The notes under the pieces are model-generated. The model was not told the origin of the DNA. It made no database searches and worked only from the letters and a program-made list of their open reading frames with translations. Source: Candidatus Altiarchaeales archaeon (lineage in GTDB: Archaea > Altiarchaeota > Altiarchaeia > IMC4 > SCGC-AAA252-I15). From it: DNA of 64,000 bases. The position numbers and the translations under genes were made by a program. Positions 3,509 through 56,377 of the stretch are shown here, in pieces. Position 1 is the first letter of the stretch. Every line of letters starts with the position of its first letter. The DNA is taken from the NCBI GenBank assembly GCA_014727915.1, contig WJMO01000009.1:32001-96000 (forward strand), read 5' to 3'.

Positions 3509-4801
3509 ATGGAACTGGAAGAGATACTCAAAAAGATAGAGGAAACACCCAAACCAAAGGTCAAGAAGGCATGCATCGCATACTCCGGAGGCCTTGACTC
3601 CTGCCTCGGAGTCGAGTTCCTGCGCAAGGTATACGGCGCAGAGGAGATCGTGGCAGTAACACTGGACGTCGGACAGGGAGAGGAGGAGATTAAGGACGCG
3701 GACGAGAAAGCCAAGAAACTGGGTATCGACCCGATACTCATAGACATCAAGGACGAGTTCACGGAAGTGTGGATGTCCAAGGCGATACAGGCGAACAGCG
3801 ACTACAACGGATATCCGGTGTCGACTTCGATGACACGCCAGCTGGTAGCGGCGGTGGTCGCGGAGCAGGCGGTCAAACACGGCTGCGACTCCATACTCGA
3901 AGGCTGCACCGGGAAGGGCAACGACCAGTACAGGATGCACAACGTTATCAAGTTCTTCGCACCCGACATAGAGATACTGCAACCGGTGAGGGACTTCGAC
4001 CTCACCCGACTAGAGGAGAACGCTCTGGTGGAGGCCTGGGACATACCGGTCAACGAGCAGGTGACCGGCGGAGACGACAAGACCCTGTGGTGCCGCTCAA
4101 TAGCATCCGGCGCCGTTGACCTGAACCAGCCGCTGCCCGATGACATCTGGATGTGGCTGGTGCCTCCGGAGAAGGCGCCCGACAAGCCGACTATCGTCGA
4201 GCTGGAGTTCGAGAGGGGCGTTCCCGTGGCCATGGACGGAAAGCATATGAAGCTCGGCGACCTGGTCATGGAGTTGAACGTCATAGCAGGGAAGAACGGA
4301 GTGGGTAAGATAGACATGTTTGAGGACGGGATAATGAACATGAAGAGCCGCGAGATATACGAGGCCCCCGCCGCACACGTGATACTCAAGCTTCACCGTG
4401 ACCTGGAGCAGTGGTGCCTCAGCAAGGACGAGATACAGTTCAAGAAGTCAGTGGATTCCAAATGGGCTTACCTCGTATACCACGGCCAATGGTATCACCC
4501 GCTCAAGGACGACCTCGACGCGTTCATATCCAAGAGCCAGGAGTGGGTGAACGGCAGATACAAGGCGAAGCTTTACAAGGGCAACATCGACATCATCGAG
4601 CGCCACTCCGACACGGGACTGTTCAGCCCTGAGATGCGGTCAATAAAGACCCGTGGATTCGACCAGCGCTGGGCGGTCGGTTCGACAAAGGTGGAGACCC
4701 TCCAATGGATGATAATGGCCAAGGCGGGGCGGAAGCCCCAGCCCAAGGTCGAGATCAAGAAGGACCTGAAGAAGGCGGAGAAGGTGAAGGCCAGGAAGTA
4801 G
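3509..4801 (+). CDS. argG: Argininosuccinate synthase-like paralog with divergent substrate-pocket motifs
   Basis: AYSGGLDS, GCTGKGNDQYR, KSREIYEAPA. Confidence 0.85.
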   Translation: MELEEILKKIEETPKPKVKKACIAYSGGLDSCLGVEFLRKVYGAEEIVAVTLDVGQGEEEIKDADEKAKKLGIDPILIDIKDEFTEVWMSKAIQANSDYNGYPVSTSMTRQLVAAVVAEQAVKHGCDSILEGCTGKGNDQYRMHNVIKFFAPDIEILQPVRDFDLTRLEENALVEAWDIPVNEQVTGGDDKTLWCRSIASGAVDLNQPLPDDIWMWLVPPEKAPDKPTIVELEFERGVPVAMDGKHMKLGDLVMELNVIAGKNGVGKIDMFEDGIMNMKSREIYEAPAAHVILKLHRDLEQWCLSKDEIQFKKSVDSKWAYLVYHGQWYHPLKDDLDAFISKSQEWVNGRYKAKLYKGNIDIIERHSDTGLFSPEMRSIKTRGFDQRWAVGSTKVETLQWMIMAKAGRKPQPKVEIKKDLKKAEKVKARK

Positions 4802-4853
4802 ATTCCTGCCACTTCCCTCATTTATTTTAGGAAATCGAATAGGTTAGGGTACG

Positions 4854-6359
4854 ATGGCGAAGCTATGGGGAGGACGGTTCGAAAAGGACCTCACGGAGAG
4901 CACCGAGGACTATCTCCAGTCCATAGAGGTGGACAAGGAGATGGTATTGGAAGACATCTGGGGTAGCCAGGCCCATGCAATAATGCTCTCCAAGCAGGAC
5001 ATCATCTCCAACAAGGATTTGAAGGAGATCCTCCACTGGCTTGAAAAGGCGAAGAAGGACTACTTGAGCGGGAAGCTGGTCTTAAGCAAGCAGGACGAGG
5101 ACGTTCACATGAACGTCGAGAAATACCTCATCCGGGGGGCCGGCCCCGAATACGGGGGGAAGCTCCACACTGCTCGAAGCCGGAATGACCAGGTATTGAC
5201 GGATGCGAAACTCCACATACGGCACAAGATACTCGACATAAAGAAGAAGATATTGAGCCTGCAGAATGTCTTCATAGAACTTGCCGAGGAAAACCTCGAG
5301 ACTCCTGTTCCAGGCTACACGCACACCCAGGACGCTCAGCCGATAACATTGGCCTACTGGGCTACCGCCTATGTGAGCGCTTTCATGCGGGACCTCAAGC
5401 GTCTCGACCACGCCTACGCGAACGTAGACACCAACCCGCTGGGCTCGTGCGCTCTTGCAGGGACTTCATTTCCCATAGACCGCCGCATGACCGCGAAGCT
5501 TTTGGGGTTCACCGAGGTCCACAAGCACAGCCTGGATGTCATATCAAGCCGGGACTTCATAGCTGAGACATTGTGCGCGCTGACGATACACATGAGCAAC
5601 CTGAGCAAGCTCGCGGAGGAGATGGTCTACTGGAGCACCTACGAGTTCGGCATACTCGAGTTGGACGACAGCTACACCGCAGGCTCATCCATCATGCCCC
5701 AGAAGAAGAACCCCTGCGTGGCTGAGCTGACCCGCGGCCGGACTGGCCGAGTCTACGGAGCTCTAATGCAGCTGCTCACCATGATGAAGGGCATACCCAT
5801 GGGCTACAACCGTGACCTACAGGAGGACAAGCCACCCCTGTGGAACGCCTTCGACATCGTGGGCAAAACGCTCGACGTCACCATCGGGATGATAGACACC
5901 ATGAAAGTCAACGAGGAGCGGCTCGCTGAACTGTCCGGGGCGAACTTCACGACTGCCACGGAGCTGGCTAACCACCTGGTCCGGGAGCACGGGCTCAGCT
6001 TCCGTGAATGCCATCATATAGTCGGGAGCCTGGTGGGAGAGCTCCACCGGAAGGGGAAGAACTTCATGGACTTCGACGAAGTCGACAAGATACTGTCCGG
6101 TCAGGGAGTTAAGGTCAGCTTCGACGAGATGCGCAACATCTTCGACCCGCGCAAGAACATTCACACCTACAAGAGCCTCGGCAGCACCTCCCCCCGGGAG
6201 GTCTCCAAGATGATTCGGGAGTTCAAGAAACAGATGGACTCTAACATAAGACGCATAAAGTCCCAGGAGGAGCGTATTGAGTCCGCGCAGAAGCTCACGG
6301 AGAGCATAGTCTCGAAGGTGCTTGAAGGAAAGGACATAGGGGGGATAAAGATAAAATGA
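4854..6359 (+). CDS. argH: Argininosuccinate lyase
   Basis: [43 protein letters not shown]. Confidence 0.97.
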
Positions 6360-7570
6360 AGAAGAAGGTAGTGTTGGCTTACTCGGGGGGTTTGGACACG
6401 AGCGTGATACTGAAGTGGCTCATCGACAAAGGCTATGATGTCATAGCATACGTGGCGGACGTCGGCCAGAAAGAGGACTATGAGGCCGTCAGGAAGAAGG
6501 CCCTCGAATGCGGAGCTAGCAAAGTCTACGTTGAAGACCTGAAAAAGGAGTTCATAACCGACTTCGTGTTCAAGGCTTTGAAGTCCAATGCGGTATACGA
6601 GGGAAGATACCTCCTTGGAACGTCGATAGCCCGGCCCGTGATCGCGAAACGCCACATAGACGTGGCCCGGAAGGAGAAGACCAACATAGTCTCCCACGGT
6701 GCCACCGGAAAGGGCAATGATCAGGTCCGCTTCGAGCTGACCTACATCACCTTGATGCCCGAGGTCGAGATAATAGCTCCCTGGAAGGACGAGGAGTTCC
6801 TGTCCAAGTTCCAGGGCCGGAAGGACATGCTGGAATATGCCGAGGAGCATGGCATCCCGGTAGAGGCCACGACTAAGAAGCCCTACAGCTCCGACGAGAA
6901 CATAATGCACAAGAGCTACGAGGCGGGGGTCCTGGAGGACCCGCTCAAACCAGCTGATGAATCCATGTTCACCATGACCGTTTCCCCGAAGGACGCCCCC
7001 GACGAGAAGACAAAGGTTTCAGTCACCTTCAAAGCGGGTGTCCCTGTTAAAGTCGAGTCCAACGGCACCGTCAAGTCTAAGCCTGTGGAGATGCTCCAGT
7101 TCCTGAACAAGATAGCGGGCGAGAACGGCGTGGGCCGCATAGACATCGTGGAGAACCGGTTCGTGGGTATGAAATCACGGGGCGTCTACGAGACACCCGG
7201 ATACACTGTGCTGCGCGCCGCTCACATGGACCTGGAGGGGCTGACGGTGGACCGTGAGGTGATACACCTCCGGGACATGCTGACACCCAAGATATCGGAG
7301 CTCATGTACTATGGGTTCTGGTATGCGCCCGAGATGTACTTCCTGATGGCAGCAGTCGAAGAGAGCCAGAAGCACGTTTCAGGCACGGTGCACCTGTCCC
7401 TATACAAGGGCAACGTGATTGTGGAAGGACGCGAGTCAGAGGACAGCCTATACGACGAGGACGTGGCCTCAATGGATGTCCACGGCGGATACGACCAGAA
7501 GGACGCTACCGGATTCATAAAACTGAACGCGTTGCGCCTGCGCATATGGGCCAGAAAACACGGTAAATGA
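6356..7570 (+). CDS. argG: Argininosuccinate synthase (canonical)
   Basis: [63 protein letters not shown]. Confidence 0.97.
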
Positions 7571-7600: not shown

Positions 7601-7810
7601 ATGGTGAATCATAGGGTTTTATCCTATCTGTTGCTGGCTTTGTCGCTCCTTCCCGGCAACTCATGTGCTTACATAGACCCTGGAACGGGCAGCATGTTAT
7701 TCCAACTTGTAATAGCCGCCTCTGTGGGGGTCATGTTCCTTATCAAGTCTAAGGTAAAAAACCTTATATCGGGTATACAAAAGGCATTGTCTAAGTCTGA
7801 TGATGGATGA
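7601..7810 (+). CDS. Small membrane protein with AYIDPGTGS motif
   Basis: Signal-like N-terminus, AYIDPGTGS, then a TM helix; overlaps the next gene. Confidence 0.75.
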   Translation: MVNHRVLSYLLLALSLLPGNSCAYIDPGTGSMLFQLVIAASVGVMFLIKSKVKNLISGIQKALSKSDDG

Positions 7811-9179
7811 GCGTAGGGTTCCCTCTTCTTTCAGGGACCCCAACGGATTTGTCTTCACTGAGGGTGGCGAGGTATTTCGCCAGGTTAACATCTCTTACAA
7901 AAGGCAATATGAGAAACTGATGTTCTCTGGCTTGTATGACGACCTGGTTTCTGATGGCCTGATTATTCCCCACATCGAATCGGACCATGAACCTTTGAAA
8001 AATCATGGCGCATATAAGGTATTGAAGCCCGATATTGTTCGTTTCACATCCTACCCCTATGAGTGGTGTTTCTCACAGTTAAAGGACGCTGCTCTGACGA
8101 CCCTCTCGATACAGATGAAATCCCTCGAACACGGGATGACACTAAAAGATGCCAGCGCATATAACATACAGTTCAACAGGGGGAAGCCTGTTCTCATAGA
8201 TACTCTATCCTTCGAGGTCCTGGACCCTACTGTCCCCTGGGTGGCCTATCGTCAATTCTGCCAGCACTTCCTAGCGCCGCTGGCGCTGATGACCTACATC
8301 GATCCAGGGCTGAACAGCCTCTTAAAGTCCCATCTAGACGGCGTTCCTCTTTCCATGGCCTCAAATATGCTGCCCAGAAGAACATACCTGAACTGGGGGC
8401 TACTTGTCCATTTACACATGCACTCAAAGAGTCAGTCACGTCTGATCAGGCATAGAGACAAGATGGAGGACAGGGCAATTAGCCTTAACTCCCTCAAAGG
8501 CCTTGCGGACAATCTGATGTCAACTGTGAAAAGCCTGGTCTGGAAGCCTGACAAGACAGTATGGAGCGAATACTATGGGGTTGAAAGTAACTATGATGAT
8601 TCGTCATTCGATGCAAAAAAGAAGAGGGTCGGAGAGCTAATAGAAAAGGCAAATCCGGCCAGCATTTGGGATATTGGGGCGAATACCGGCCTTTTCAGCA
8701 GGATGGCCTCTGAGAGGGGAGTACCGACCCTTTCGTTGGACTATGATAGGTCCTGTGTTGAGGTCAACTACTTAAGGGTCAAAAAGGACGGTGATGAAAA
8801 TCTGCTGCCCCTACACTCTGATATCACAAATCCAGCCCCGGCGATCGGATGGATGAACCAAGAGAGGAAGTCACTTCTTGAAAGGGGCCCAACAGACACT
8901 GTGCTTGCGTTAGCGTTGATACACCACCTGGCGATAGCAAACAACCTGCCCCTTGCCATGGTAAGCTCGTTCTTCTCAGGAATATGCAAAAAGCTAATAA
9001 TCGAATTCGTGCCCAAACAGGACTCCAATGCGCAGAGGCTTCTGCAGTCTAGGGAAGACATATTCCCTGACTATAACCTGGAGGAATTCGAAGGTGAATT
9101 CTCAAGATATTTTAAAATCGATTCCAAATTGCCAATACCCGGAAGCGATAGGGTGCTATATCTGATGGTGAAAGAATAA
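7800..9179 (+). CDS. NoeA-like protein (kinase-like N-domain + SAM-dependent methyltransferase)
   Basis: SSFRDP, SYPYEWCFSQLKDAA, LKDASAYNIQF, WDIGANTG, LALALIHHL. Confidence 0.85.
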   Translation: MMDERRVPSSFRDPNGFVFTEGGEVFRQVNISYKRQYEKLMFSGLYDDLVSDGLIIPHIESDHEPLKNHGAYKVLKPDIVRFTSYPYEWCFSQLKDAALTTLSIQMKSLEHGMTLKDASAYNIQFNRGKPVLIDTLSFEVLDPTVPWVAYRQFCQHFLAPLALMTYIDPGLNSLLKSHLDGVPLSMASNMLPRRTYLNWGLLVHLHMHSKSQSRLIRHRDKMEDRAISLNSLKGLADNLMSTVKSLVWKPDKTVWSEYYGVESNYDDSSFDAKKKRVGELIEKANPASIWDIGANTGLFSRMASERGVPTLSLDYDRSCVEVNYLRVKKDGDENLLPLHSDITNPAPAIGWMNQERKSLLERGPTDTVLALALIHHLAIANNLPLAMVSSFFSGICKKLIIEFVPKQDSNAQRLLQSREDIFPDYNLEEFEGEFSRYFKIDSKLPIPGSDRVLYLMVKE

Positions 9180-9180
9180 G

Positions 9181-10707
9181 ATGCACAACTCCCCTAGGGT
9201 GATCCTACACCCTCTCCTGCTAGCAGCATATCCTGTCCTCTTCCTCTATGGCCAGAACCTCGGGGAAGTCGCATTAGAAGGGCTCGTCATCCCCCTCACA
9301 TTTGCGTTCGCCGTTCTCTCCGTCTCCTATTCCCTGTTCTTTCTCCACTTCAGGGAAATGGAAAGAACGTCCTTGATGACGTCCCTGTTTCTCGTTATCT
9401 TCTTCTTTTCGGGTATTTTCGCCGAACTGCTGTCTAAATACGCTCCCTTACTATACCTTGGTGAAACTGTAATACCCCACCAGTTCATCCTTGTTTTTTT
9501 CAGCGCTGCCTTCTTGACACTCTCCCTCTCTCTTCTTTCAGGGCATAAAGGGGATTTAAAGCCAATAACCTTCTATTTTAATCTTCTAGCATCCACTCTG
9601 GCGTTGTTGAATCTTCTTACTGTCGTTCCTTTTTTGCTTTCCACCAGCCTTAACGGTTCCCAGTCCTCCCCGACAGGCTTGCATCCTGAAGCCGAATGCA
9701 CTGGAGCATGTCCAGACATATATTACATAATCCTGGATGCATACCCGCGAGACGACGTTCTGAGGGAGAGTTTTGGGTTTGAAAACGGGCCCTTCATAGA
9801 CTCCCTATCCTCCAGGGGATTCTATGTCGCGTCCGACTCGAGGAGCAACTATGCAAATAGCTATCAGTCCCTATCATCCTCTCTAAACATGGATTATCTG
9901 GATGCACTAGTCGATAGCATGAAAAGCGCTTCTATGAACCGTTATATGGTCTATGAGATGATCAAGGAAAACAAGGTCCAGGGTTATCTAGAGTCCAAAG
10001 GCTACGTAATCATCAATTTCAGGTCTGGCTGGGGTCCAACGGATGATATGGGCGATTCAGACATTCAGCTAAGCCCTTTTGACTTCCGCGAGAACAACGA
10101 ATTCTTTGTTGTTCTGCTGCAAAACACTGTTTTGGCCCCTGCAATAGAGCAGGTTATATGGGACTCTAGGAGGGAGAACATCTTATACGCTTTCGATAAC
10201 CTAGGCGGAGTTGCTGACATGCCTGAATCCACCTTCACATTTGCTCACATACTCTGCCCGCACCCTCCCTTCCTATTCGATGAGGATGGCAGTCTCCCCT
10301 CATCAGATGCTGGTTTGAGCCTCGATGATCTCATGGCGGGTCAGGTGTCCTTTGTCAACAGGAAGGTCTCTGATGCTGTTGACGAGATACTGTCCAAGTC
10401 GGATGAGCCTCCGGTGATCATCTTGCAGGCTGATCACGGTACCGGACTGCTCGGATCAAACAGTGTTTGCATGTTAAAACCTTCAAGCATATATTCTGTG
10501 AATGAGAGTGAACTGGAGGACCGGATGAAGATATTGAACGCCTATCTTCTGCCTGGGGGCGGGAGCGAAGGGCTGTACGAGTCTATCTCTCCCGTGAACT
10601 CTTTTAGGGTTGTTTTCAACCGCTACTTCCATGAGAACCTCACTCTCCTGGAGGATAGGAGCTTCATATCCTGCGACAGTGACACTTTCAATTTCAGAGA
10701 ACTATGA
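9181..10707 (+). CDS. Membrane-anchored alkaline-phosphatase/sulfatase-superfamily protein, paralog 1
   Basis: About five N-terminal TMs; PDIYYIILDAY, HILCPHPPF, IILQADHG, SPVNSFR. Confidence 0.85.
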   Translation: MHNSPRVILHPLLLAAYPVLFLYGQNLGEVALEGLVIPLTFAFAVLSVSYSLFFLHFREMERTSLMTSLFLVIFFFSGIFAELLSKYAPLLYLGETVIPHQFILVFFSAAFLTLSLSLLSGHKGDLKPITFYFNLLASTLALLNLLTVVPFLLSTSLNGSQSSPTGLHPEAECTGACPDIYYIILDAYPRDDVLRESFGFENGPFIDSLSSRGFYVASDSRSNYANSYQSLSSSLNMDYLDALVDSMKSASMNRYMVYEMIKENKVQGYLESKGYVIINFRSGWGPTDDMGDSDIQLSPFDFRENNEFFVVLLQNTVLAPAIEQVIWDSRRENILYAFDNLGGVADMPESTFTFAHILCPHPPFLFDEDGSLPSSDAGLSLDDLMAGQVSFVNRKVSDAVDEILSKSDEPPVIILQADHGTGLLGSNSVCMLKPSSIYSVNESELEDRMKILNAYLLPGGGSEGLYESISPVNSFRVVFNRYFHENLTLLEDRSFISCDSDTFNFREL

Positions 10708-12161
10708 TGAAAAATGAGAAAAGCGATTAGGACTATCATTCACCCGATAATATTCGGTTTGTACCCTGTCCTGTTCCTCTACGGCGAGAACCTAGGGGAG
10801 GTCGCATCATACGATCTGCTGCTTCCCCTGGCTTTCTCGTTGGCCCTCGTCATCTCCTTTCTCGGGTGTTTTTGGGTTCTCTTAAGGGACATGGACAAGT
10901 CTGCGGCTATGTCCTCATTGTCTCTGATATTCTTCTTCTTCTACTCGGGGTTTTCCGAATTTGCATCATCACATCTGCCTCTGATAGTCAGCACCAACAT
11001 AGTATTGCACCCCTACTACATCGTGAACTTTTTCAGCGCTGCATTCTTGACCCTGTCCTTTATCCTGTTGAGGGATTACAAGGGGGGGCTCGGACCTTTA
11101 ACAACATTCTTCAATGTTATAGCATCTATTCTGCTGGTTTTCAATCTGATCGATGTTGTCCCGTTTATTCTGTCTGAGGATGTCCGGAGGGGAGTCGATA
11201 ACCCCGGGGATGTCCACGTTATATCTGGCAAATCCATGCCTGACATCTACTACATCATCTTGGACGGCTATTCCAGGGATGATGTCCTGTTGGAGTCCCT
11301 TGGCCACAACAACAGCGGATTCTCAGACGAGCTTCGGGCTAGGGGGTTCTACGTTGCTGACAAGTCAATGAGCAACTATGCGACCACTTTCCTCTCATTG
11401 CCGTCCTCCCTGAACATGAAATACATCGATCACGTCTCTTCGAACACAACTCGTCTCCCTCATGATCTTAGCATGGCCTACAACCTGATAAGGGACAATG
11501 AAGTTCAGAAATATCTTAAGTCAAAGGGCTACACGATAGTCAATTTTCGTTCCAGCTGGGGTCCGACAGATGACATTAGAAGTGCGGATTTGCAGCTGAG
11601 CTTCTCGCAATTCAGAGAGAACAACGACTTCTTCCTTGTTTTGCTGCAGACCACTGCCTTATCACCGTTTATTGAACACATCATCTGGGATTTTAGACGT
11701 AATAACATACTCTACGTCTTTGATGAGCTGTCCGATGTCGCTCTCATGCCCGAGCCCACATTCACGTTATCTCATGTCCTATGCCCCCATGCTCCCTTCC
11801 TCTTTGACCGTGATGGGGGGGTGCCTGTCCAAACTATGGACTCTCGCGAGCTCTATGTGGGACAGCTCGTATACGTGAACAAAAGAGTATTAGGCGTTGT
11901 TGACGAGATACTGTCCAAGTCGGATGAGCCTCCGGTGATCATCTTGCAGGCGGACCATGGCGCAGGCATATTGGGGTTCAACAATGCATGTGTGAACAAC
12001 CCGTTAGATAACAGAAACTATGACGATAAAATGGTCGAGGACCGGGTTAAGATATTGAACGCCTATCTTCTGCCTGGGGGCGGGAGCGAAGGGCTGTACG
12101 AGTCTATCTCTCCCGTGAACTCTTTTAGGGTTGTTTTCAACCGCTACTTCCATGAGAACCT
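10377..12161. repeat. Identical blocks shared by the two paralogs: 54 bp (10377-10430 = 11898-11951) and 113 bp (10528-10640 = 12049-12161)
   Basis: Direct base comparison; both blocks at the same 1521-bp offset. Confidence 0.9.
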
Positions 12162-12243
12162 TACGATGCTCGAGGACCGGAGTTATTTCTCATGTGGTCG
12201 GAACCCATTCGACTTCAGGGAGGTGGAGCACACAACTGCCTGA
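10714..12243 (+). CDS. Membrane-anchored alkaline-phosphatase/sulfatase-superfamily protein, paralog 2
   Basis: Same architecture; PDIYYIILDGY, HVLCPHAPF, IILQADHG. Confidence 0.85.
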   Translation: MRKAIRTIIHPIIFGLYPVLFLYGENLGEVASYDLLLPLAFSLALVISFLGCFWVLLRDMDKSAAMSSLSLIFFFFYSGFSEFASSHLPLIVSTNIVLHPYYIVNFFSAAFLTLSFILLRDYKGGLGPLTTFFNVIASILLVFNLIDVVPFILSEDVRRGVDNPGDVHVISGKSMPDIYYIILDGYSRDDVLLESLGHNNSGFSDELRARGFYVADKSMSNYATTFLSLPSSLNMKYIDHVSSNTTRLPHDLSMAYNLIRDNEVQKYLKSKGYTIVNFRSSWGPTDDIRSADLQLSFSQFRENNDFFLVLLQTTALSPFIEHIIWDFRRNNILYVFDELSDVALMPEPTFTLSHVLCPHAPFLFDRDGGVPVQTMDSRELYVGQLVYVNKRVLGVVDEILSKSDEPPVIILQADHGAGILGFNNACVNNPLDNRNYDDKMVEDRVKILNAYLLPGGGSEGLYESISPVNSFRVVFNRYFHENLTMLEDRSYFSCGRNPFDFREVEHTTA

Positions 12244-50882: not shown

Positions 50883-51197
50883 ATGGAATTGGATAGTGGG
50901 GAGGGGGATATCATCGAGTTCCTAGCGTCGAAGAAGTGGATACTGCTCGTGCTGACGGAGCTGCACTTCCACGGGACTCAACGGTTCAACGAGCTGTTGG
51001 AGAACATGCGGATGGTCAGTCCGAAGATACTTTCCAAGCGACTCAAGGAACTTGAGGAGCGTGGCCTGGTTTCGAGGCAGAAGTTCAACGAGATACCTCC
51101 AAGGGTCGAGTACTCGCTCACGGAAAAGGGCGGGGAGCTTGTGAAATCCTTCAAGGACATCGGCAAGTGGGCCATCAAGTGGGAGAGGAACCGGTGA
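50883..51197 (+). CDS. HxlR-family regulator
   Basis: KKWILLVL, RFNEL, SPKILSKRLKELE, PPRVEYSLTEKG. Confidence 0.92.
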   Translation: MELDSGEGDIIEFLASKKWILLVLTELHFHGTQRFNELLENMRMVSPKILSKRLKELEERGLVSRQKFNEIPPRVEYSLTEKGGELVKSFKDIGKWAIKWERNR

Positions 51198-51720
51198 TCT
51201 CAAGGGCCTCCTGGAACTGGGGCGTCCAGTCAACCTCTAAAATAGGCTTTCCACCGTGCTCCAACCACTCCTTTATCTCCTCAACGTCCGCGCCGCTGGT
51301 GTTGTCCACCTCCAACACGTTCTCGCACAGTCCAAGGCTCTCGTATAGTATAACGCCGGTGTATTCCGCCTCCAGGTTCTCCACTATCTTTTCTCTGCTG
51401 TAGCCGCGTTCGACCATCCTCTGGTATAGGGTTAATGGGTTGCATCTCAGCACGAGTACGTGTGTGACGTCCAGGTGATGGCTCAGCAGCCCGTCCAATA
51501 TCATGTCTCCGTTGGTGTTCTCTGACAAATGCTTTCTTAGAAGTTCGACGTCCACGGTCTTCGTGTCCCGCATTTCATCGTAGCTCTCGCAGAGCCCCCG
51601 CTCTTCGACCTCCCTGGTGAGGTCCAAAACCTTCATCCTAAGTCGTTCGCCCAGCTCCCGGGACAGGGTCGTTTTCCCTGTGCAGGGGACTCCTGTGACG
51701 GCTAGCACGGTACGCTCCAT
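51175..51720 (-). CDS. Adenylate kinase, AK6/Fap7 type
   Basis: TGVPCTGKTT, LSHH, VLRC.P..L..R...RGY...KI.EN.EAE. Confidence 0.9.
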   Translation of the reverse strand: MERTVLAVTGVPCTGKTTLSRELGERLRMKVLDLTREVEERGLCESYDEMRDTKTVDVELLRKHLSENTNGDMILDGLLSHHLDVTHVLVLRCNPLTLYQRMVERGYSREKIVENLEAEYTGVILYESLGLCENVLEVDNTSGADVEEIKEWLEHGGKPILEVDWTPQFQEALEITGSSPT

Positions 51721-51779
51721 ATTCGTTTTTTAACCATTGAATTGAATAATTTACTATATCTATTATCCGGAGGAATTAT

Positions 51780-52124
51780 ATGAAAATTAAGAGCTTGATT
51801 GCGGCTTACGTCCTGTTTGCTATTATACTCTTCTCCACCTACGTTACTGCGCCAAGTCCTGCAGGCACCAACTACATGAAGGACGTCGTCTGCAGCATAC
51901 TATCGAACATACAGTTCGTATTGGATTCCATAGGCCCCGGCTTCGTGATAGTCATGTTCACCTACGGGGGCATAAAGTACGTCTTCTCCGCGGACGACCC
52001 CCAGGGCAGGAAGTCGGCCAAGAACACGTGCATACACTCGCTCATCGGCGGAATCATCCTGATAGTCGCGCATCACGTCGTCGGCCTATTGGGCATGACG
52101 AACAACTGCACTGGAACACCATGA
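51780..52124 (+). CDS. TrbC/VirB2-like pilin paralog 1
   Basis: Signal peptide; two hydrophobic helices around YGGIKYVFSADDPQGRKSAK. Confidence 0.75.
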   Translation: MKIKSLIAAYVLFAIILFSTYVTAPSPAGTNYMKDVVCSILSNIQFVLDSIGPGFVIVMFTYGGIKYVFSADDPQGRKSAKNTCIHSLIGGIILIVAHHVVGLLGMTNNCTGTP

Positions 52125-52495
52125 AGTCGCATGAGGTATTGAAGTTGGATGGGAGGATGAGAAGGCATTTGCTGGTTGTCCTGACTTTGTCATATCTCTC
52201 TACCACGGCTTTGGCGGTCACGAACTTCATAAAGGCTGTGCCCTGCAGCATCCTGAATATGATACTCGGAACCTTGAATGCTGTTGTTCCCGCTCTTGTG
52301 ATAATATTCTTCCTATACGGGGGCGTGAAGTACATTTTCTCCGCGGACGACCCGAAGGGCAGGGGCCAGGCCAAGTCCATACTCATCAACGCCTTGATAG
52401 GTGGCATCATATACATGGTATGGACTGCGATCAACACTATGCTTTCAACGGTCTCTGGCGGATCAGGGCCTACTGGTATGTGGGGTGTCTGCTAA
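52121..52495 (+). CDS. TrbC/VirB2-like pilin paralog 2
   Basis: ATGA overlap (alternative start 52157); YGGVKYIFSADDPKGRGQAK; ends in C. Confidence 0.75.
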   Translation: MKSHEVLKLDGRMRRHLLVVLTLSYLSTTALAVTNFIKAVPCSILNMILGTLNAVVPALVIIFFLYGGVKYIFSADDPKGRGQAKSILINALIGGIIYMVWTAINTMLSTVSGGSGPTGMWGVC

Positions 52496-52496
52496 A

Positions 52497-52760
52497 ATGT
52501 CTTACAGCACAATCTCAAATGTGCCCTGCACATTCCTATTATGGATATGGGAGGCGTTAAAAGCGATAATACCCACTATGATCGCCATCATGTTCATATA
52601 TGGGGCTGCAAAATATATCTCGTCAGCCGACGACCCAAGCGGAAGGCAGAAGGGCAAGCAGATATGCATGCACTCGGTAATCGGGGCTTTGATATATATC
52701 CTATCAGTTTCAGTGATGTTGGCGGTTGGATTAACCCAGGCTGATGTATGCCATAATTAA
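52497..52760 (+). CDS. TrbC/VirB2-like pilin paralog 3 (no evident signal peptide)
   Basis: ATG 1 nt after the previous stop; YGAAKYISSADDPSGRQKGK. Confidence 0.72.
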   Translation: MSYSTISNVPCTFLLWIWEALKAIIPTMIAIMFIYGAAKYISSADDPSGRQKGKQICMHSVIGALIYILSVSVMLAVGLTQADVCHN

Positions 52761-52770
52761 ACGCGAAAAA

Positions 52771-53103
52771 ATGGATTTAAATTCGGATCTGCGGAGGGGG
52801 GGAATAACAGTCTTGGCCTTAATAGTGTTCTCACAGTTTGCTTCTGCGAGCACTTACCTCCAGCCAATAATAGACTTCGTTGAGCAGGGTTTGATAACGG
52901 CACTCAAGAGGGTGGGGAATACCATCGCTTTCATAATGTTCATATACGGGGCTGCAAAGTACGTTTACAGCGCCGACGACCCCGCCGGCCGGAAGACCGC
53001 CATGGGCGTGTGCATCGCCGCGGTAGTAGCCTTCCTGTTCATCCGCATAGCGGACAACGTAATATACCAGATGTGCGTGGCCATGCCCGCATGCACACCA
53101 TAG
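52771..53103 (+). CDS. TrbC/VirB2-like pilin paralog 4
   Basis: Signal ending ASA; YGAAKYVYSADDPAGRKTA. Confidence 0.75.
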   Translation: MDLNSDLRRGGITVLALIVFSQFASASTYLQPIIDFVEQGLITALKRVGNTIAFIMFIYGAAKYVYSADDPAGRKTAMGVCIAAVVAFLFIRIADNVIYQMCVAMPACTP

Positions 53104-53107
53104 GAAA

Positions 53108-53419
53108 ATGAACGTCAGAAGAATAGCACTGGGTTTCCTGGCCTTGTCTGTGATAGCCCAGCCTGCGGCAGCGGCGAACGCGGCCGAGCTAATAGCCTCG
53201 GTCATATGCGGGCTCGTCCCCGAGGTCATCCGCCTCGCGCGGTGGCTTGCAGTCCTCATGTTCGTCTACGGCGGCGCGAAATACGCCTACAGCGCCGACG
53301 ACCCGGGCGGCCGGAAGGCGGCGAGGGCCATAGCTATCAACGGCATAGTAGGATTCCTGATAGTCGGGTTGGCGAAGGACCTGGTGGACGCGATAGCCGG
53401 AGCCACGATCTGCCCCTGA
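53108..53419 (+). CDS. TrbC/VirB2-like pilin paralog 5
   Basis: Signal ending AAA; YGGAKYAYSADDPGGRKAAR; ends in CP. Confidence 0.75.
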   Translation: MNVRRIALGFLALSVIAQPAAAANAAELIASVICGLVPEVIRLARWLAVLMFVYGGAKYAYSADDPGGRKAARAIAINGIVGFLIVGLAKDLVDAIAGATICP

Positions 53420-53470: not shown

Positions 53471-56377
53471 TCATGAAATTATCGTCTCATCCGAGGCTTC
53501 AGTCGTTGTGCTGAACCCGCCGTAGTCTATCTCATAGGACCTCACGTAGCCCCAGCTGAACTCCCCGTCTTCCATGCCGTCGCCGTCGTAGTCTGGGACC
53601 AGCCTGAAATGCTTCAACGGCTTGACTTCCCTGCTGTACAGCCCCAGAGCCTTGTACTCGTCCAGGTATTTGCCCAGGTAGAGCCGGGTCATCATGAAGT
53701 CGTTGAACTCCTGGGGCACGTACACGAGGGTTGTGAACTGGGGAAGCCTGCATATGCTGCTGCTGTCCACGTTGTTCCAGTTCAGCGCGCACATGAGTAT
53801 GCTGGGAACCCTCTCCTCGTTCAAACCCACCAGGGGCTGCACCCCCAGCAGGGACGAGTCCTGCGAGTTCTGCCAGTCAATCCATGAGATGTGCGTCCCG
53901 TACCCGTCGATGACGTTGACGCCTGTGATCTCATCGCCTTCAACCTCTATGTAGACGCCGGCGACGTAGTTACGGCACTGGAACACGACCCTCTTAACCC
54001 TCTTGAAGCTGCCGTCCTCTCCCACCTCCAGCTTCTCCTCCAACTGGCTGAGGTCCGGCCGGAACGAGCAGGTCGCGTAGTTCTTCCAACCCCACTCGGG
54101 CGGGGCGGGGGTCTCGGTGTCGATGTCGCCGTTGGCTATGTAGTGGAGCGCGCTTCCCTTTGGTATCATCGTCCAGTCGATGGAGACGTACTTCAGCTCC
54201 CTGCCGTGCTCCCGGTACACGTCATTGTAGGCTTTTACTATCTCGAAGGCCTCCTCCTCGCTTGTCTTGTTGACGAAGAACCGGGCGACGTCCTGGATCT
54301 CATAGTAGTCCGCCTGCAGGTTGTCTATTAGGACCGGCCTGTGGCTGTAGCTGCTGTACCAGTGGCCGTAGTCCCACCAGGTCATTATGGCATCCCCCGG
54401 GTCGGTGTGGTCCCTGTGCCAGACGAGAGCCTCCTCCCAGTAGTAGCGGTCGCCGCTGGGGCCCATGTGCATGACCTGGTAGCCGATGAACTTCCTGTAG
54501 AAGTCGTAGTCGACGAAGCCGAAGGTCGGAACGTAGAAGACGGGTATCGCCACTAGCATGACGGCCCCGATCACCCGAAGGCTCTCGAAGTCCTCCTTCC
54601 TCACGATCGAGAACAAACCGATGGTCGACCCCAGCGCGGTTATCGAAGCGCTCGAGGCGAATATCCACGCGCTCTTATGGTATGCCCCGTACATCATCGG
54701 AGCGCTCCACGTGAGCAGGAAAAGCGCTCCTATGCTCCCCCTGCTGTAGACCATATATGCGAGTACGGGTATCATGAGCACCCCGAACAACAGGGCTAGC
54801 CCGTAACGGTAGTATCCCTCCCTGAGGAAGGTGTTGAAGTTGTCGGCTAGCGGGTTCTGCTCCGCGACCGTCTGGTGTACCACGCTCTTCTCGGTGGCGA
54901 CCCGCAGGCTGTTCTTGGCGAAGTCCACGATGTCCGCCGGCGACTTGTACAGTGTGAAGGCTCCAACCCCCAACAAAAGGGCGACAACACCCAACGCGGT
55001 TATGTTCTTCTCTATCCAGTCAGCGGACCTGCCCTCCAGGCTCTTCTCTCCCGTCAATTTCATGGGGTTCGAACGTCTCCTGACCATCTCGAGTATCACC
55101 GGCAGACCCAAAGCCCCCATCATAGGGTAGATGGCATTTGGGGGGAGCTCCTGCACCACAGGCAGACCGCCCCTCGCGTGGAGTATCAAACCGCTGAACT
55201 GGGCGATTACCGAGGGTATGACTATGTATGGGAGGTGTTCGGCCGCGTTCTTGTCCTGGAGGAACCTGACCACCGCATACAATGACCCGAACACTCCGAT
55301 TGTGGTGAACACGTAGACGCTACCTCCCCAGGCCATCCGCAACGTCATGAACGTAAGTCCCGCGAGCACCGAGTATTTGAAGCTGCGCCGGTTGTAGGAT
55401 GCGAAGAACAGGTAGAGTCCTGCGACCATGAGGAACATTCCCAGTGCGTCGTCCTCGCAGTTGGTCGCGACCGACTTCATGGCGAAGGCCGGGCTTAGCA
55501 TGAGCATGAATGCGGCAGCGAAGCCAGCCACCTTGTTGTAAGGTTCCATGTCGGCGAATAGCTCCTTAACCAGCAGGTAGATGGCCACTATCGTGAACCC
55601 TGCTATCACGCCTGGGAATACCATCGCCACGTCGTGGAGGCTCACGTCGAAGGGCTTCAGCACCAGGCCCAGGACCGCGTAGGAGACCGGGGTCATCATC
55701 GGGGTGTTCCTCTGCTCCAGCCCGTAAGTGTGGCCCTTGTCCCCTATGTAGCTGGGGTCGTCATGACGGCTTAGACCCCCGTACATGGGGTAGACTAGGT
55801 CGTCGAACTCCGGCGGGTAGCCTTCATTGTACACCCCCTGCATCCACTTGTAATGCCAGTATGGGTCCAATGCCGCCAGGTAGTCGCTTTGGGCGGGTGC
55901 CAGGTGGGTCAATAGAGTGGAGGCGAACAATGCCAGCACCAATGCGACCTCTGTCCTCAGGATACCATAGTATGATAGTGCGTAGAATGTCAGGAATATC
56001 CCCGCCATCAGGCTGAAGAAGAGATAGTCCTTTGTGAAGGGCATGGGATACCTGTTCGAGTAGTGTGAGAACAGTGCAGCCAACAGTATCAGCGCGGGTA
56101 CTCCATAGCTCCAAACGTCCCTTCGCAGATGCTTGCTGTTGTATACCTGATAGGCTGATAAGAGCGACAAGCCAAACAACATCAGCGGCGTTCCTGTCTG
56201 GAAAAGGCCCTCATTGTAGCTCGCCTTTACGGCGGTCAGAAACAAAGCTGCCACGGAGGCCAGGAACAGCGGTTCCCCCAACTTCCCGCCTATCCTCTCT
56301 AATGAACCCAGTGAGAAGCTGATCGACGCCTCCTCTTTCCTCTTTCTCTTCTTTCTTTTCTTCTTAGAAACCATCAC
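53471..56377 (-). CDS. aglB: Oligosaccharyltransferase AglB (STT3 family)
   Basis: LDPYWH, TVAEQ, WWDYG; polytopic N-terminal half. Confidence 0.93.
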   Translation of the reverse strand: MMVSKKKRKKRKRKEEASISFSLGSLERIGGKLGEPLFLASVAALFLTAVKASYNEGLFQTGTPLMLFGLSLLSAYQVYNSKHLRRDVWSYGVPALILLAALFSHYSNRYPMPFTKDYLFFSLMAGIFLTFYALSYYGILRTEVALVLALFASTLLTHLAPAQSDYLAALDPYWHYKWMQGVYNEGYPPEFDDLVYPMYGGLSRHDDPSYIGDKGHTYGLEQRNTPMMTPVSYAVLGLVLKPFDVSLHDVAMVFPGVIAGFTIVAIYLLVKELFADMEPYNKVAGFAAAFMLMLSPAFAMKSVATNCEDDALGMFLMVAGLYLFFASYNRRSFKYSVLAGLTFMTLRMAWGGSVYVFTTIGVFGSLYAVVRFLQDKNAAEHLPYIVIPSVIAQFSGLILHARGGLPVVQELPPNAIYPMMGALGLPVILEMVRRRSNPMKLTGEKSLEGRSADWIEKNITALGVVALLLGVGAFTLYKSPADIVDFAKNSLRVATEKSVVHQTVAEQNPLADNFNTFLREGYYRYGLALLFGVLMIPVLAYMVYSRGSIGALFLLTWSAPMMYGAYHKSAWIFASSASITALGSTIGLFSIVRKEDFESLRVIGAVMLVAIPVFYVPTFGFVDYDFYRKFIGYQVMHMGPSGDRYYWEEALVWHRDHTDPGDAIMTWWDYGHWYSSYSHRPVLIDNLQADYYEIQDVARFFVNKTSEEEAFEIVKAYNDVYREHGRELKYVSIDWTMIPKGSALHYIANGDIDTETPAPPEWGWKNYATCSFRPDLSQLEEKLEVGEDGSFKRVKRVVFQCRNYVAGVYIEVEGDEITGVNVIDGYGTHISWIDWQNSQDSSLLGVQPLVGLNEERVPSILMCALNWNNVDSSSICRLPQFTTLVYVPQEFNDFMMTRLYLGKYLDEYKALGLYSREVKPLKHFRLVPDYDGDGMEDGEFSWGYVRSYEIDYGGFSTTTEASDETIIS

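Follow-up and report, generated by a model that had tools for sequence, protein, structure and literature searches.

Tandem arrays of VirB2-like pilin genes that go with a chromosomal, relaxase-less type IV secretion system (T4SS) have so far been reported for Patescibacteria, where they have been interpreted as adapting the cells to an epibiotic lifestyle (PMC12102498, PMC12857230). According to Quinonero-Coronel et al. 2025 (PMC12102498), the T4SSs of these bacteria are chromosomal, mostly relaxase-less and equipped with VirB4, TrsD, PrgI/VirB3 and VirB6, and their arrays comprise 2–11 VirB2-like genes with a mean identity of 25%. The array of Ca. Southlakia epibionticum was reported to be essential (PMC12857230; cited in PMC12102498). 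For the archaea, Beltran et al. 2023 (PMC9905601) describe the crenarchaeal DNA-import pili built from CedA1 (Aeropyrum pernix, PDB 8dfu) and TedC (Pyrobaculum); the archaeal section of a T4SS review from 2025 deals with conjugative plasmids only. Here we describe an array of five paralogous pilin genes on a 64,000 nt stretch of an Altiarchaeota contig, called the window in the following. Coordinates without a contig or locus name refer to this window, and in the numbering of the whole genome the array lies on contig C6. Judged from its sequence, it appears to be an archaeal variant of an already known kind of pilin array, for which we infer a filament and its function. With a probability of roughly 0.6 we read it as one operon of differentiated VirB2/TrbC subunits that are assembled by the chromosomal T4SS-like machine of the same genome into a filament or tube. 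This reading is drawn from family membership, operon layout, synteny, positional orthology and the presence and co-distribution of the machine.

The array consists of five tightly packed small open reading frames (ORFs) of 87–124 aa on the + strand, between positions 51780 and 53419. Spacing between them ranges from a 4 nt overlap up to a gap of 10 nt, and by this layout the array looks like a single translationally coupled operon. A first description made from the letters alone, in the following the sequence-only reading, had taken the five products for paralogous T4SS-type pilins. The profile searches agree: PF18895 (T4SS_pilin) matches four and PF04956 (TrbC/VirB2) two of the five above the curated Pfam cut-offs, which are 26.6 bits and 27.9 bits, respectively. 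Since the PF18895 matches reach E-values of 5e-11 to 4e-6 in four paralogs, chance similarity is excluded. The elements of the operon are these:

51721..51779, + strand: probable promoter and ribosome-binding site of the operon, a 59 bp A/T-rich divergent intergenic region with TATA-like runs (read by eye)
51780..52124, + strand: pilin paralog 1, 114 aa; PF18895 42.9 bits and PF04956 28.8 bits, both over cut-off
52121..52495, + strand: pilin paralog 2, 124 aa; PF18895 33.8 bits (over cut-off), PF04956 24.3 bits (under cut-off)
52497..52760, + strand: pilin paralog 3, 87 aa; PF18895 27.4 bits (over cut-off), no match to PF04956
52771..53103, + strand: pilin paralog 4, 110 aa; PF18895 15.2 bits and PF04956 18.7 bits, both under cut-off
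53108..53419, + strand: pilin paralog 5, 103 aa, last gene; PF18895 29.6 bits and PF04956 29.4 bits, both over cut-off

A GGAGG is seen by eye at 51769–51773, 6 nt ahead of the first ATG of the array. The ATG of paralog 2 overlaps the stop codon of paralog 1, paralog 3 starts 1 nt past the stop of paralog 2, and paralog 5 starts 4 nt beyond that of paralog 4, for which an alternative ATG at 52744 would yield 119 aa. Paralog 4 matches the profile built from the array paralogs at 1e-46 and is thus a clear member. An alignment of the five has 13 invariant columns (M1, F60, Y62, G63, K66, Y67, S70, A71, D72, D73, P74, G76 and R77), which confirm the shared motif F-x-YG-x-x-KY-x-x-SADDP-x-GR noticed before. 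The pairwise identity to paralog 1 is only 25–40%. Likewise, the signal peptides proposed for four of the five can be recognized, by inspection and not by SignalP, from a hydrophobic stretch at the N-terminus that closes with a small-x-small site; paralogs 1, 2 and 5 are among these four. As had been stated, paralog 5 is the most GC-rich at third codon positions (GC3); its value of 0.769 is the top of the array. For paralog 5 to be the major subunit, as had been suggested, GC3 would have to track expression. The lowest value is that of paralog 3 (0.545) and the genome median is 0.718. GC3 of four paralogs falls within the 5th–95th percentiles of the genome and that of paralog 3 just over the 5th.

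By these profile matches, the five proteins belong to the VirB2/TrbC – T4SS_pilin superfamily. An AlphaFold2 (AF2) model of paralog 5, calculated with 39 array sequences, has a mean predicted local distance difference test score (pLDDT) of 89.1 and shows helices at residues 3–16 (a separate signal helix) and at 25–61 and 66–97, which form a hairpin. Its nearest clusters in the ESM Atlas are PF18895 pilins of Minisyncoccota (0.91) and archaeal TrbC/VirB2 proteins (0.89). When compared with solved pilins by fold, CedA1/TedC-type structures match no better than unrelated hairpins do, hairpins being a shape that matches many folds.

The genome to which the window belongs (1.81 Mb in 13 contigs, 90.6% complete) has 10 PF18895 matches over the cut-off. 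The sequence-only reading had named the lack of any VirB4/CedB-like ATPase or channel in the genome as what would speak against it. The genome does encode such an ATPase: on contig C3, genes for a VirB4-like ATPase, for a PrgI/VirB3-like protein and for candidate VirB6-like proteins lie together in the following locus:

C3:63208-77427: T4SS-like locus, chromosomal, between the SepRS/ThrRS genes and eRF1

This locus contains three pilin genes, a 768 aa ATPase, a 305 aa protein of the PrgI family, two proteins of 398 and 155 aa of unknown kind, a 682 aa protein whose 7 hydrophobic segments include a pilin-like hairpin, a 1665 aa paralog of the latter and a fourth pilin gene. The 768 aa ATPase has the domains PF19044 (92 bits), AAA_10 and DUF87 and matches the solved VirB4 structure 4ag5 at 1e-31. 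Among the NCBIfam models, 'VirB4-like conjugal transfer ATPase, CD1110 family' fits it best, with 294.4 bits and 1.8e-87 at a cut-off of 325. The models for CedB and CedD give 53 bits (cut-off 700) and 52 bits (cut-off 600). Its best relatives on plasmids come from Actinomycetota and Bacillota and are 26–31% identical. PF03135 (CagE_TrbE_VirB) reaches only 13.3 bits in this genome; the ATPase was identified through the other models. The 305 aa protein matches PF12666 (PrgI) with 36.8 bits against a cut-off of 27, has a weak match to TrsD (26.8 bits against a cut-off of 200) and also matches the N-terminal part of a VirB4 from a mycoplasma integrative and conjugative element. The polytopic proteins are candidates for VirB6-like subunits by architecture alone, i.e. 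a pilin-like hairpin and 6–7 hydrophobic segments beside VirB4. Among the profiles for coupling proteins, PF02534 gives 21 bits over 42 positions only, and PF12696 and PF01580 (FtsK) stay under the cut-off.

Genes of these kinds were also seen elsewhere in the genome. A second VirB4-like ATPase (593 aa, similar to the first at 1e-119, without the N-terminal part) lies in C3:190576-201935. It adjoins genes for secreted proteins of 690 and 569 aa and for a 1701 aa phosphodiesterase/CARDB protein, and relatives have paralogs of it in open frames of ~1100 aa with 33–35% identity. At C4:3100-8730 a tyrosine integrase, a Vsr endonuclease, a C-5 cytosine methylase, a HATPase_c_3 protein and a 218 aa fragment of a VirB4-like ATPase occur together, probably as a decayed integrated element or a defence island. 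Two pairs of giant membrane proteins are located among housekeeping genes, at C12:243850-252905 (1570 and 1450 aa) and C12:50829-61936 (1443 and 2241 aa). Those of 1570, 1450 and 1443 aa are weak paralogs of the VirB6-like proteins of C3, the 1570 aa protein with a pilin-like hairpin, and the 2241 aa protein has a Peptidase_M23 domain at its start. Finally, there are two orphan pilin genes away from arrays and T4SS genes, both on the - strand: C12:33004-33387, near a mannosylglycerate-hydrolase-like gene, and C3:891-1403.

We extended the search to 61 genomes of the phylum, with thresholds of E<=1e-5 for the array profile and E<=1e-10 for the VirB4-like protein. The array profile matches 47 and the VirB4-like protein 45 of them: 44 genomes have both, three only the pilin, one only VirB4 and 13 neither. 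Twelve of these 13 belong to families f8 and f9, outside the order of the window; the thirteenth, of family f7, lies inside it. The co-distribution is thus a lineage-wide core trait. The VirB4 orthologues are 59–85% identical. Among the matches listed, at least 14 genomes have a pilin match on the contig of the VirB4 orthologue and 1–16 kb away from it, and at locus L033 (family f2) an array of four copies immediately precedes the gene for a VirB6-like giant. Therefore, the pilin family is tied to the machine, despite the separate contig on which the array of the window is located.

The neighbours of the array are housekeeping genes, as had been proposed, and Pfam identifies AAA_18 (AK6-like), STT3/AglB, Prenyltransf (UppS) and PIN_6 (Nob1-like). 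The two genes flanking the array are these:

51175..51720, - strand: AK6-like kinase gene, PF13238 AAA_18 83.7 bits, divergent from the array and not part of the pilin system
53471..56377, - strand: AglB oligosaccharyltransferase gene, PF02516 STT3 and PF22627 AglB_core, convergent to the array with a gap of 51 nt

FttA, the proteasome, AglB and the Nob1-like PIN domain are archaeal markers in the window, and Altiarchaeota are usually grouped near or within DPANN. Scanned at E<=1e-5, 67 ORFs of the window gave no match to a VirB4, relaxase or integrase family, in line with the sequence-only reading. A scan of 185,579 species genomes with a degenerate pattern yielded seven related loci, five from Candidatus Altiarchaeota and two from uncultured archaea. 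All seven have the order HxlR-AK6-array-AglB-UppS-Nob1, complete or as far as the contig reaches, with 4–9 copies in the array; their AglB proteins are 49–60% identical over the full length. Counting these seven (L020-L026), AglB adjoins a tandem array of 4–14 copies in ten loci of family f1 besides the window; the other three (L030, L031 and L037) come from more distant genera, where 11 and 14 copies occur with AglB still adjacent. The copy numbers in relatives are 4, 4, 5, 5, 5–6, 6, 9, 11, 14 and 14. By tblastn, AK6 adjoins the array in L020, L021, L022, L025, L026, L030, L035 and L036; in L036 (family f1) AK6 is kept and AglB is not found within 8.5 kb. The term 'domesticated', which had been chosen for the system, is a fair one, as the array is chromosomal and vertically kept, syntenic in seven out of seven loci and distributed order-wide.

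A quick IQ-TREE analysis of 40 array proteins separates the positions within the array. The same 40 were used for the counts of cysteines and sequons below; four frames were left out, three without a start by the start-codon rule (L023, L025, L026) and one weak frame (L026). The last position (paralog 5) forms a one-per-genome clade of 7 rows with a support of 89 in the Shimodaira-Hasegawa-like approximate likelihood-ratio test (SH-aLRT), the second-last (paralog 4) one of 8 rows with 94, and both clades together are supported by 97. Paralog 3 forms a further one-per-genome clade (5 rows, SH-aLRT 91). The copies upstream are unresolved in the tree and form no orthologous clades, and copy-number change occurs mainly at the upstream end of the array. 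From tree and synteny together it follows that the array is of old date and has been passed on vertically, and that its members have become differentiated.

Elsewhere in the window, an argininosuccinate lyase gene is flanked by two argininosuccinate synthase paralogs of 430 and 404 aa (3509–7570). Three consecutive ORFs of 459, 508 and 509 aa follow at 7800–12243, the first two with no Pfam match and the third with a borderline match to Sulfatase only.

A pair of cysteines is present in 33 of the 40 array pilins, one residue 20–30 positions before the motif and the other within the last 12 residues. In the window it is found at the ends of paralogs 1 and 2, paralog 1 having an extra cysteine after the loop, and in paralog 5, where Cys34 and Cys102 are invariant in seven out of seven orthologues. 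Five of the seven exceptions belong to the class of paralog 4. This class lacks the N-proximal cysteine, and a G-N pair in helix 1 and a cysteine after the loop are invariant among its 7 aligned orthologues. Because both ends of the VirB2-type hairpin face outwards, a disulfide staple between the hairpin ends, within or between subunits, is plausible.

A link of the array to N-glycosylation, which had been suggested as possible, is not supported. It is true that paralog 1 has the sole sequon (N-C-T) in the array of the window. However, N-x-S/T occurs in only 6 of the 40 array pilins, and AglB is convergent and not co-transcribed. The adjacency to AglB is better read as kept synteny in a cell-envelope neighbourhood (glycosyltransferase family 2, epimerases, UppS) than as a sign of pilin glycosylation.

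In three genomes of the sister family f6, a single ORF combines a signal peptide, 5–6 tandem pilin hairpins and a Cys-rich C-terminal domain:

L027:6409-9021, - strand: fused pilin ORF, 871 aa, six PF18895 stretches, 168.7 bits
L028:1050-3251, - strand: fused pilin ORF with five repeats
L029:1687-3384, + strand: fused pilin ORF with five repeats

The ORF of L027 adjoins genes for ribosomal protein S27a/S24e, Rpo7 and the pyrophosphatase H+-PPase. An AF2 model of the first 580 residues of this six-hairpin fusion, made from a 3-row alignment, has a pLDDT of 52.9 and is to be read for its secondary structure only, a signal helix followed by 12 helices. The natural fusion argues for different hairpins standing side by side, and both a filament and a membrane-embedded assembly fit this. 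A pentamer, with the five paralogs forming one five-fold layer, was also considered and is not supported, as relatives have 4–14 copies and the fusions 5 or 6 repeats.

The following mechanism is proposed for the operon of differentiated subunits. Four of the five paralogs would be exported by Sec and then cleaved by signal peptidase I. Each paralog would sit in the membrane as a two-helix hairpin with its ends outside and the invariant K-Y-x-x-S-A-D-D-P-x-G-R loop facing the cytoplasm. The hairpins would then be pulled from the membrane and assembled as a pilus-like filament or an envelope-spanning tube. The apparatus at C3:63-77 kb is the presumed assembler, with its VirB4-like ATPase, its PrgI/VirB3-TrsD-like protein and the candidate VirB6-like polytopic proteins. 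By analogy to solved conjugative pili, the lumen would be lined by the conserved loop, in contact with lipid head groups, and the variable ends would point outward, where the cysteine near the mature N-terminus and the C-terminal one probably staple both ends. As the profiles used gave no relaxase and no convincing coupling protein, the most likely role of the machine is in cell-cell contact or in the uptake or exchange of macromolecules, like that of the Patescibacteria T4SS or the Ced/Ted importers, and not in plasmid conjugation. A narrower version, which we put forward tentatively and consider unlikely as it stands, makes the subunits obligate partners: stapled (classes 1–3 and 5) and unstapled (class 4) subunits would be placed in fixed order in a heteromeric VirB2-type filament or ring, of which the fusions of family f6, with their Cys-rich outer domain, would be the covalent version. 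If true, this would be the first heteropolymeric conjugative-type pilus, and an archaeal envelope organelle of order-wide occurrence, in a lineage of which the best-studied member has two membranes (PMC4460559).

Several observations weigh against the main reading. Paralog 4 remains under both Pfam cut-offs. Paralog 3 has no signal peptide and its orthologues in relatives have one; it may insert without Sec cleavage, or it may be decaying. A profile of 39 array pilins searched against the PDB chains found no pilin, the best match (E 0.46) being a designed coiled coil. The TrbL/VirB6 profile PF04610 has no match in the genome, and the channel subunit thus stays a candidate; the one relaxase family searched, PF03432, has no match in this 90.6% complete genome either. 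As the array is on C6 and the machine on C3, their functional link rests on family membership and on the relatives. The co-distribution of both tracks phylogeny, with whole families having or lacking them, and is therefore not independent evidence. Finally, the fusions of family f6 could just as well indicate hairpins that do their work within the membrane. In that case the hairpins might belong to the secretion machine, or to some other envelope complex, as membrane-resident components, for instance in a ring or platform resembling the pilin-like N-terminus of VirB6/CedA, and never form an external filament. Besides the single ORFs with 5–6 tandem hairpins, the large polytopic proteins of this genome which contain a pilin-like hairpin are in agreement with such a role, and so is the homology of VirB6/CedA N-termini to pilins reported by Beltran et al. 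(PMC9905601). However, every known VirB2-type pilin is a free, signal-peptide-bearing hairpin of 100–125 aa, and with outward ends a fused chain could also span neighbouring positions of a filament. We consider purely membrane-resident hairpins unlikely.

It could also be that the array holds a stock of major pilins that can stand in for one another, used singly or mixed at random, by which the surface is varied against viruses or epibionts. Such a role has been proposed for the VirB2 arrays of Bartonella, Anaplasma and Patescibacteria (precedent in PMC12102498). It would suit the 4–14 copies among relatives, which vary mainly upstream, the variable flanks around an invariant loop and the upstream copies without orthologous clades. 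On the other hand, one translationally coupled operon speaks for joint expression, the orthologues at positions 3, 4 and 5 are stable and occur once per genome, and the class of paralog 4, with its own invariant residues and without the Cys pair, points to fixed and different roles. An invertible or recombination element was not seen, though no dedicated search was made. Taken together, we regard a pilin store as rather improbable. Still far less credit is due to the idea of small two-helix membrane proteins unrelated to secretion, for instance holin-like or bacteriocin-related ones, with Pfam matches caused by composition. It is true that PF18895 at E<=1 also matches 11 of 14 control genomes and that helical hairpins match many unrelated folds, but four of the five paralogs are over the curated cut-off, compared to one of the 14 control genomes. 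Furthermore, two independent pilin families match, and close paralogs lie beside VirB4/VirB6-like genes in this genome and in 13 others. Close to refuted, finally, is the explanation that the array is the remnant of an integrated conjugative element or plasmid without a function for the host. The pilin family is typical of conjugative systems and an integrase-linked VirB4 fragment exists on C4. Against this stand the fixed neighbourhood in seven out of seven loci, although AglB is only 49–60% identical between them, the five intact frames, the lack of integrase and relaxase families among the scanned ORFs of the window, array GC3 values within the genome range (paralog 3 just over the 5th percentile) and the best plasmid match of the VirB4-like protein, which is only 31% identical.

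In Patescibacteria such systems were connected with the epibiotic way of life. Here, the same gene set extends across an archaeal order of much larger genomes, pilins and VirB4 occurring together in 44 of the 61 genomes of the phylum. Since VirB4 is conserved like a housekeeping gene (59–85% identity) and present order-wide, a more general role of the machine in the cell envelope or in exchange is suggested. With this finding, archaeal pili of the T4SS type reach further than the Ced and Ted systems of Crenarchaeota. No paper dealing with T4SS-type pilins of Altiarchaeota turned up among the titles and abstract openings of the literature on Altiarchaeota and DPANN. Concrete structural hypotheses arise from the positions with stable orthologues, from the cysteine pair and from the fused proteins with several hairpins. 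Natural, nearly pure biofilms of Altiarchaeum exist, and therefore proteomics and cryo-electron microscopy of filaments are feasible.

How does this array compare with known systems? Unlike what is expected of an integrative conjugative element or a plasmid, no integrase, relaxase or coupling protein was found among the scanned ORFs of the window, and the insertion site is fixed in seven out of seven loci. With Agrobacterium VirB2 (T-pilin) and RP4 TrbC it shares PF04956, over the cut-off in paralogs 1 and 5, and the build of a signal peptide followed by a pair of hydrophobic helices with a short charged loop between them. The pilins of these two systems are cyclised head-to-tail; in the array, the conserved Cys pair may replace cyclisation by means of a disulfide. 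In contrast to the single pilin gene of those systems, which is part of a plasmid-borne operon with relaxase and coupling protein, there are five genes here. Tandem amplification and divergence are also known from the VirB2 arrays of Bartonella and Anaplasma (cited in PMC12102498). These, however, belong to effector-translocating T4SSs of host-associated bacteria and are read there as antigenic variation, whereas in these environmental archaea the individual positions correspond to conserved orthologues.

The crenarchaeal Ced and Ted systems, as described, are similar in being archaeal and chromosomal and in having VirB2-like hairpin pilins, a VirB4-like ATPase and a VirB6-like channel, the latter a candidate here; TedC has a cleaved signal peptide, as predicted for four of the five paralogs. 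They differ in that a single pilin gene lies beside the CedA/TedA channel gene, compared to a five-gene array on another contig, and the array has no match to the solved pilins at the level of sequence. Furthermore, the ATPase of C3 scores far better with bacterial monoderm VirB4 models than with CedB. Judged by its ATPase, the system is not a Ced/Ted system.

The closest analogue, by its published description, comes from Patescibacteria, whose chromosomal T4SS is accompanied by an array of VirB2-like pilins. Both arrays have the same Pfam families PF18895 and PF04956 and consist of tandem divergent paralogs, here five with 25–40% identity and in the relatives 4–14 genes. Both are chromosomal, with no relaxase found here by PF03432, and the partners resemble those of a monoderm system of mating-pair formation type FATA, namely a VirB4 closest to the CD1110 kind (under the model cut-off), PrgI/VirB3 and a weak TrsD. 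Unlike the ultrasmall epibiotic bacteria, the host here is an archaeon with a genome of ~1.8 Mb and with genes for arginine and riboflavin biosynthesis in the window. The match to a VirB6 profile is missing here, and in this genome the array stands apart from virB4, at a fixed place between AK6 and AglB. What further sets it apart from the patescibacterial arrays are the last three positions, which are stable orthologues, the terminal Cys pair, seen in 33 of 40 pilins, and the multi-hairpin fusions of its relatives.

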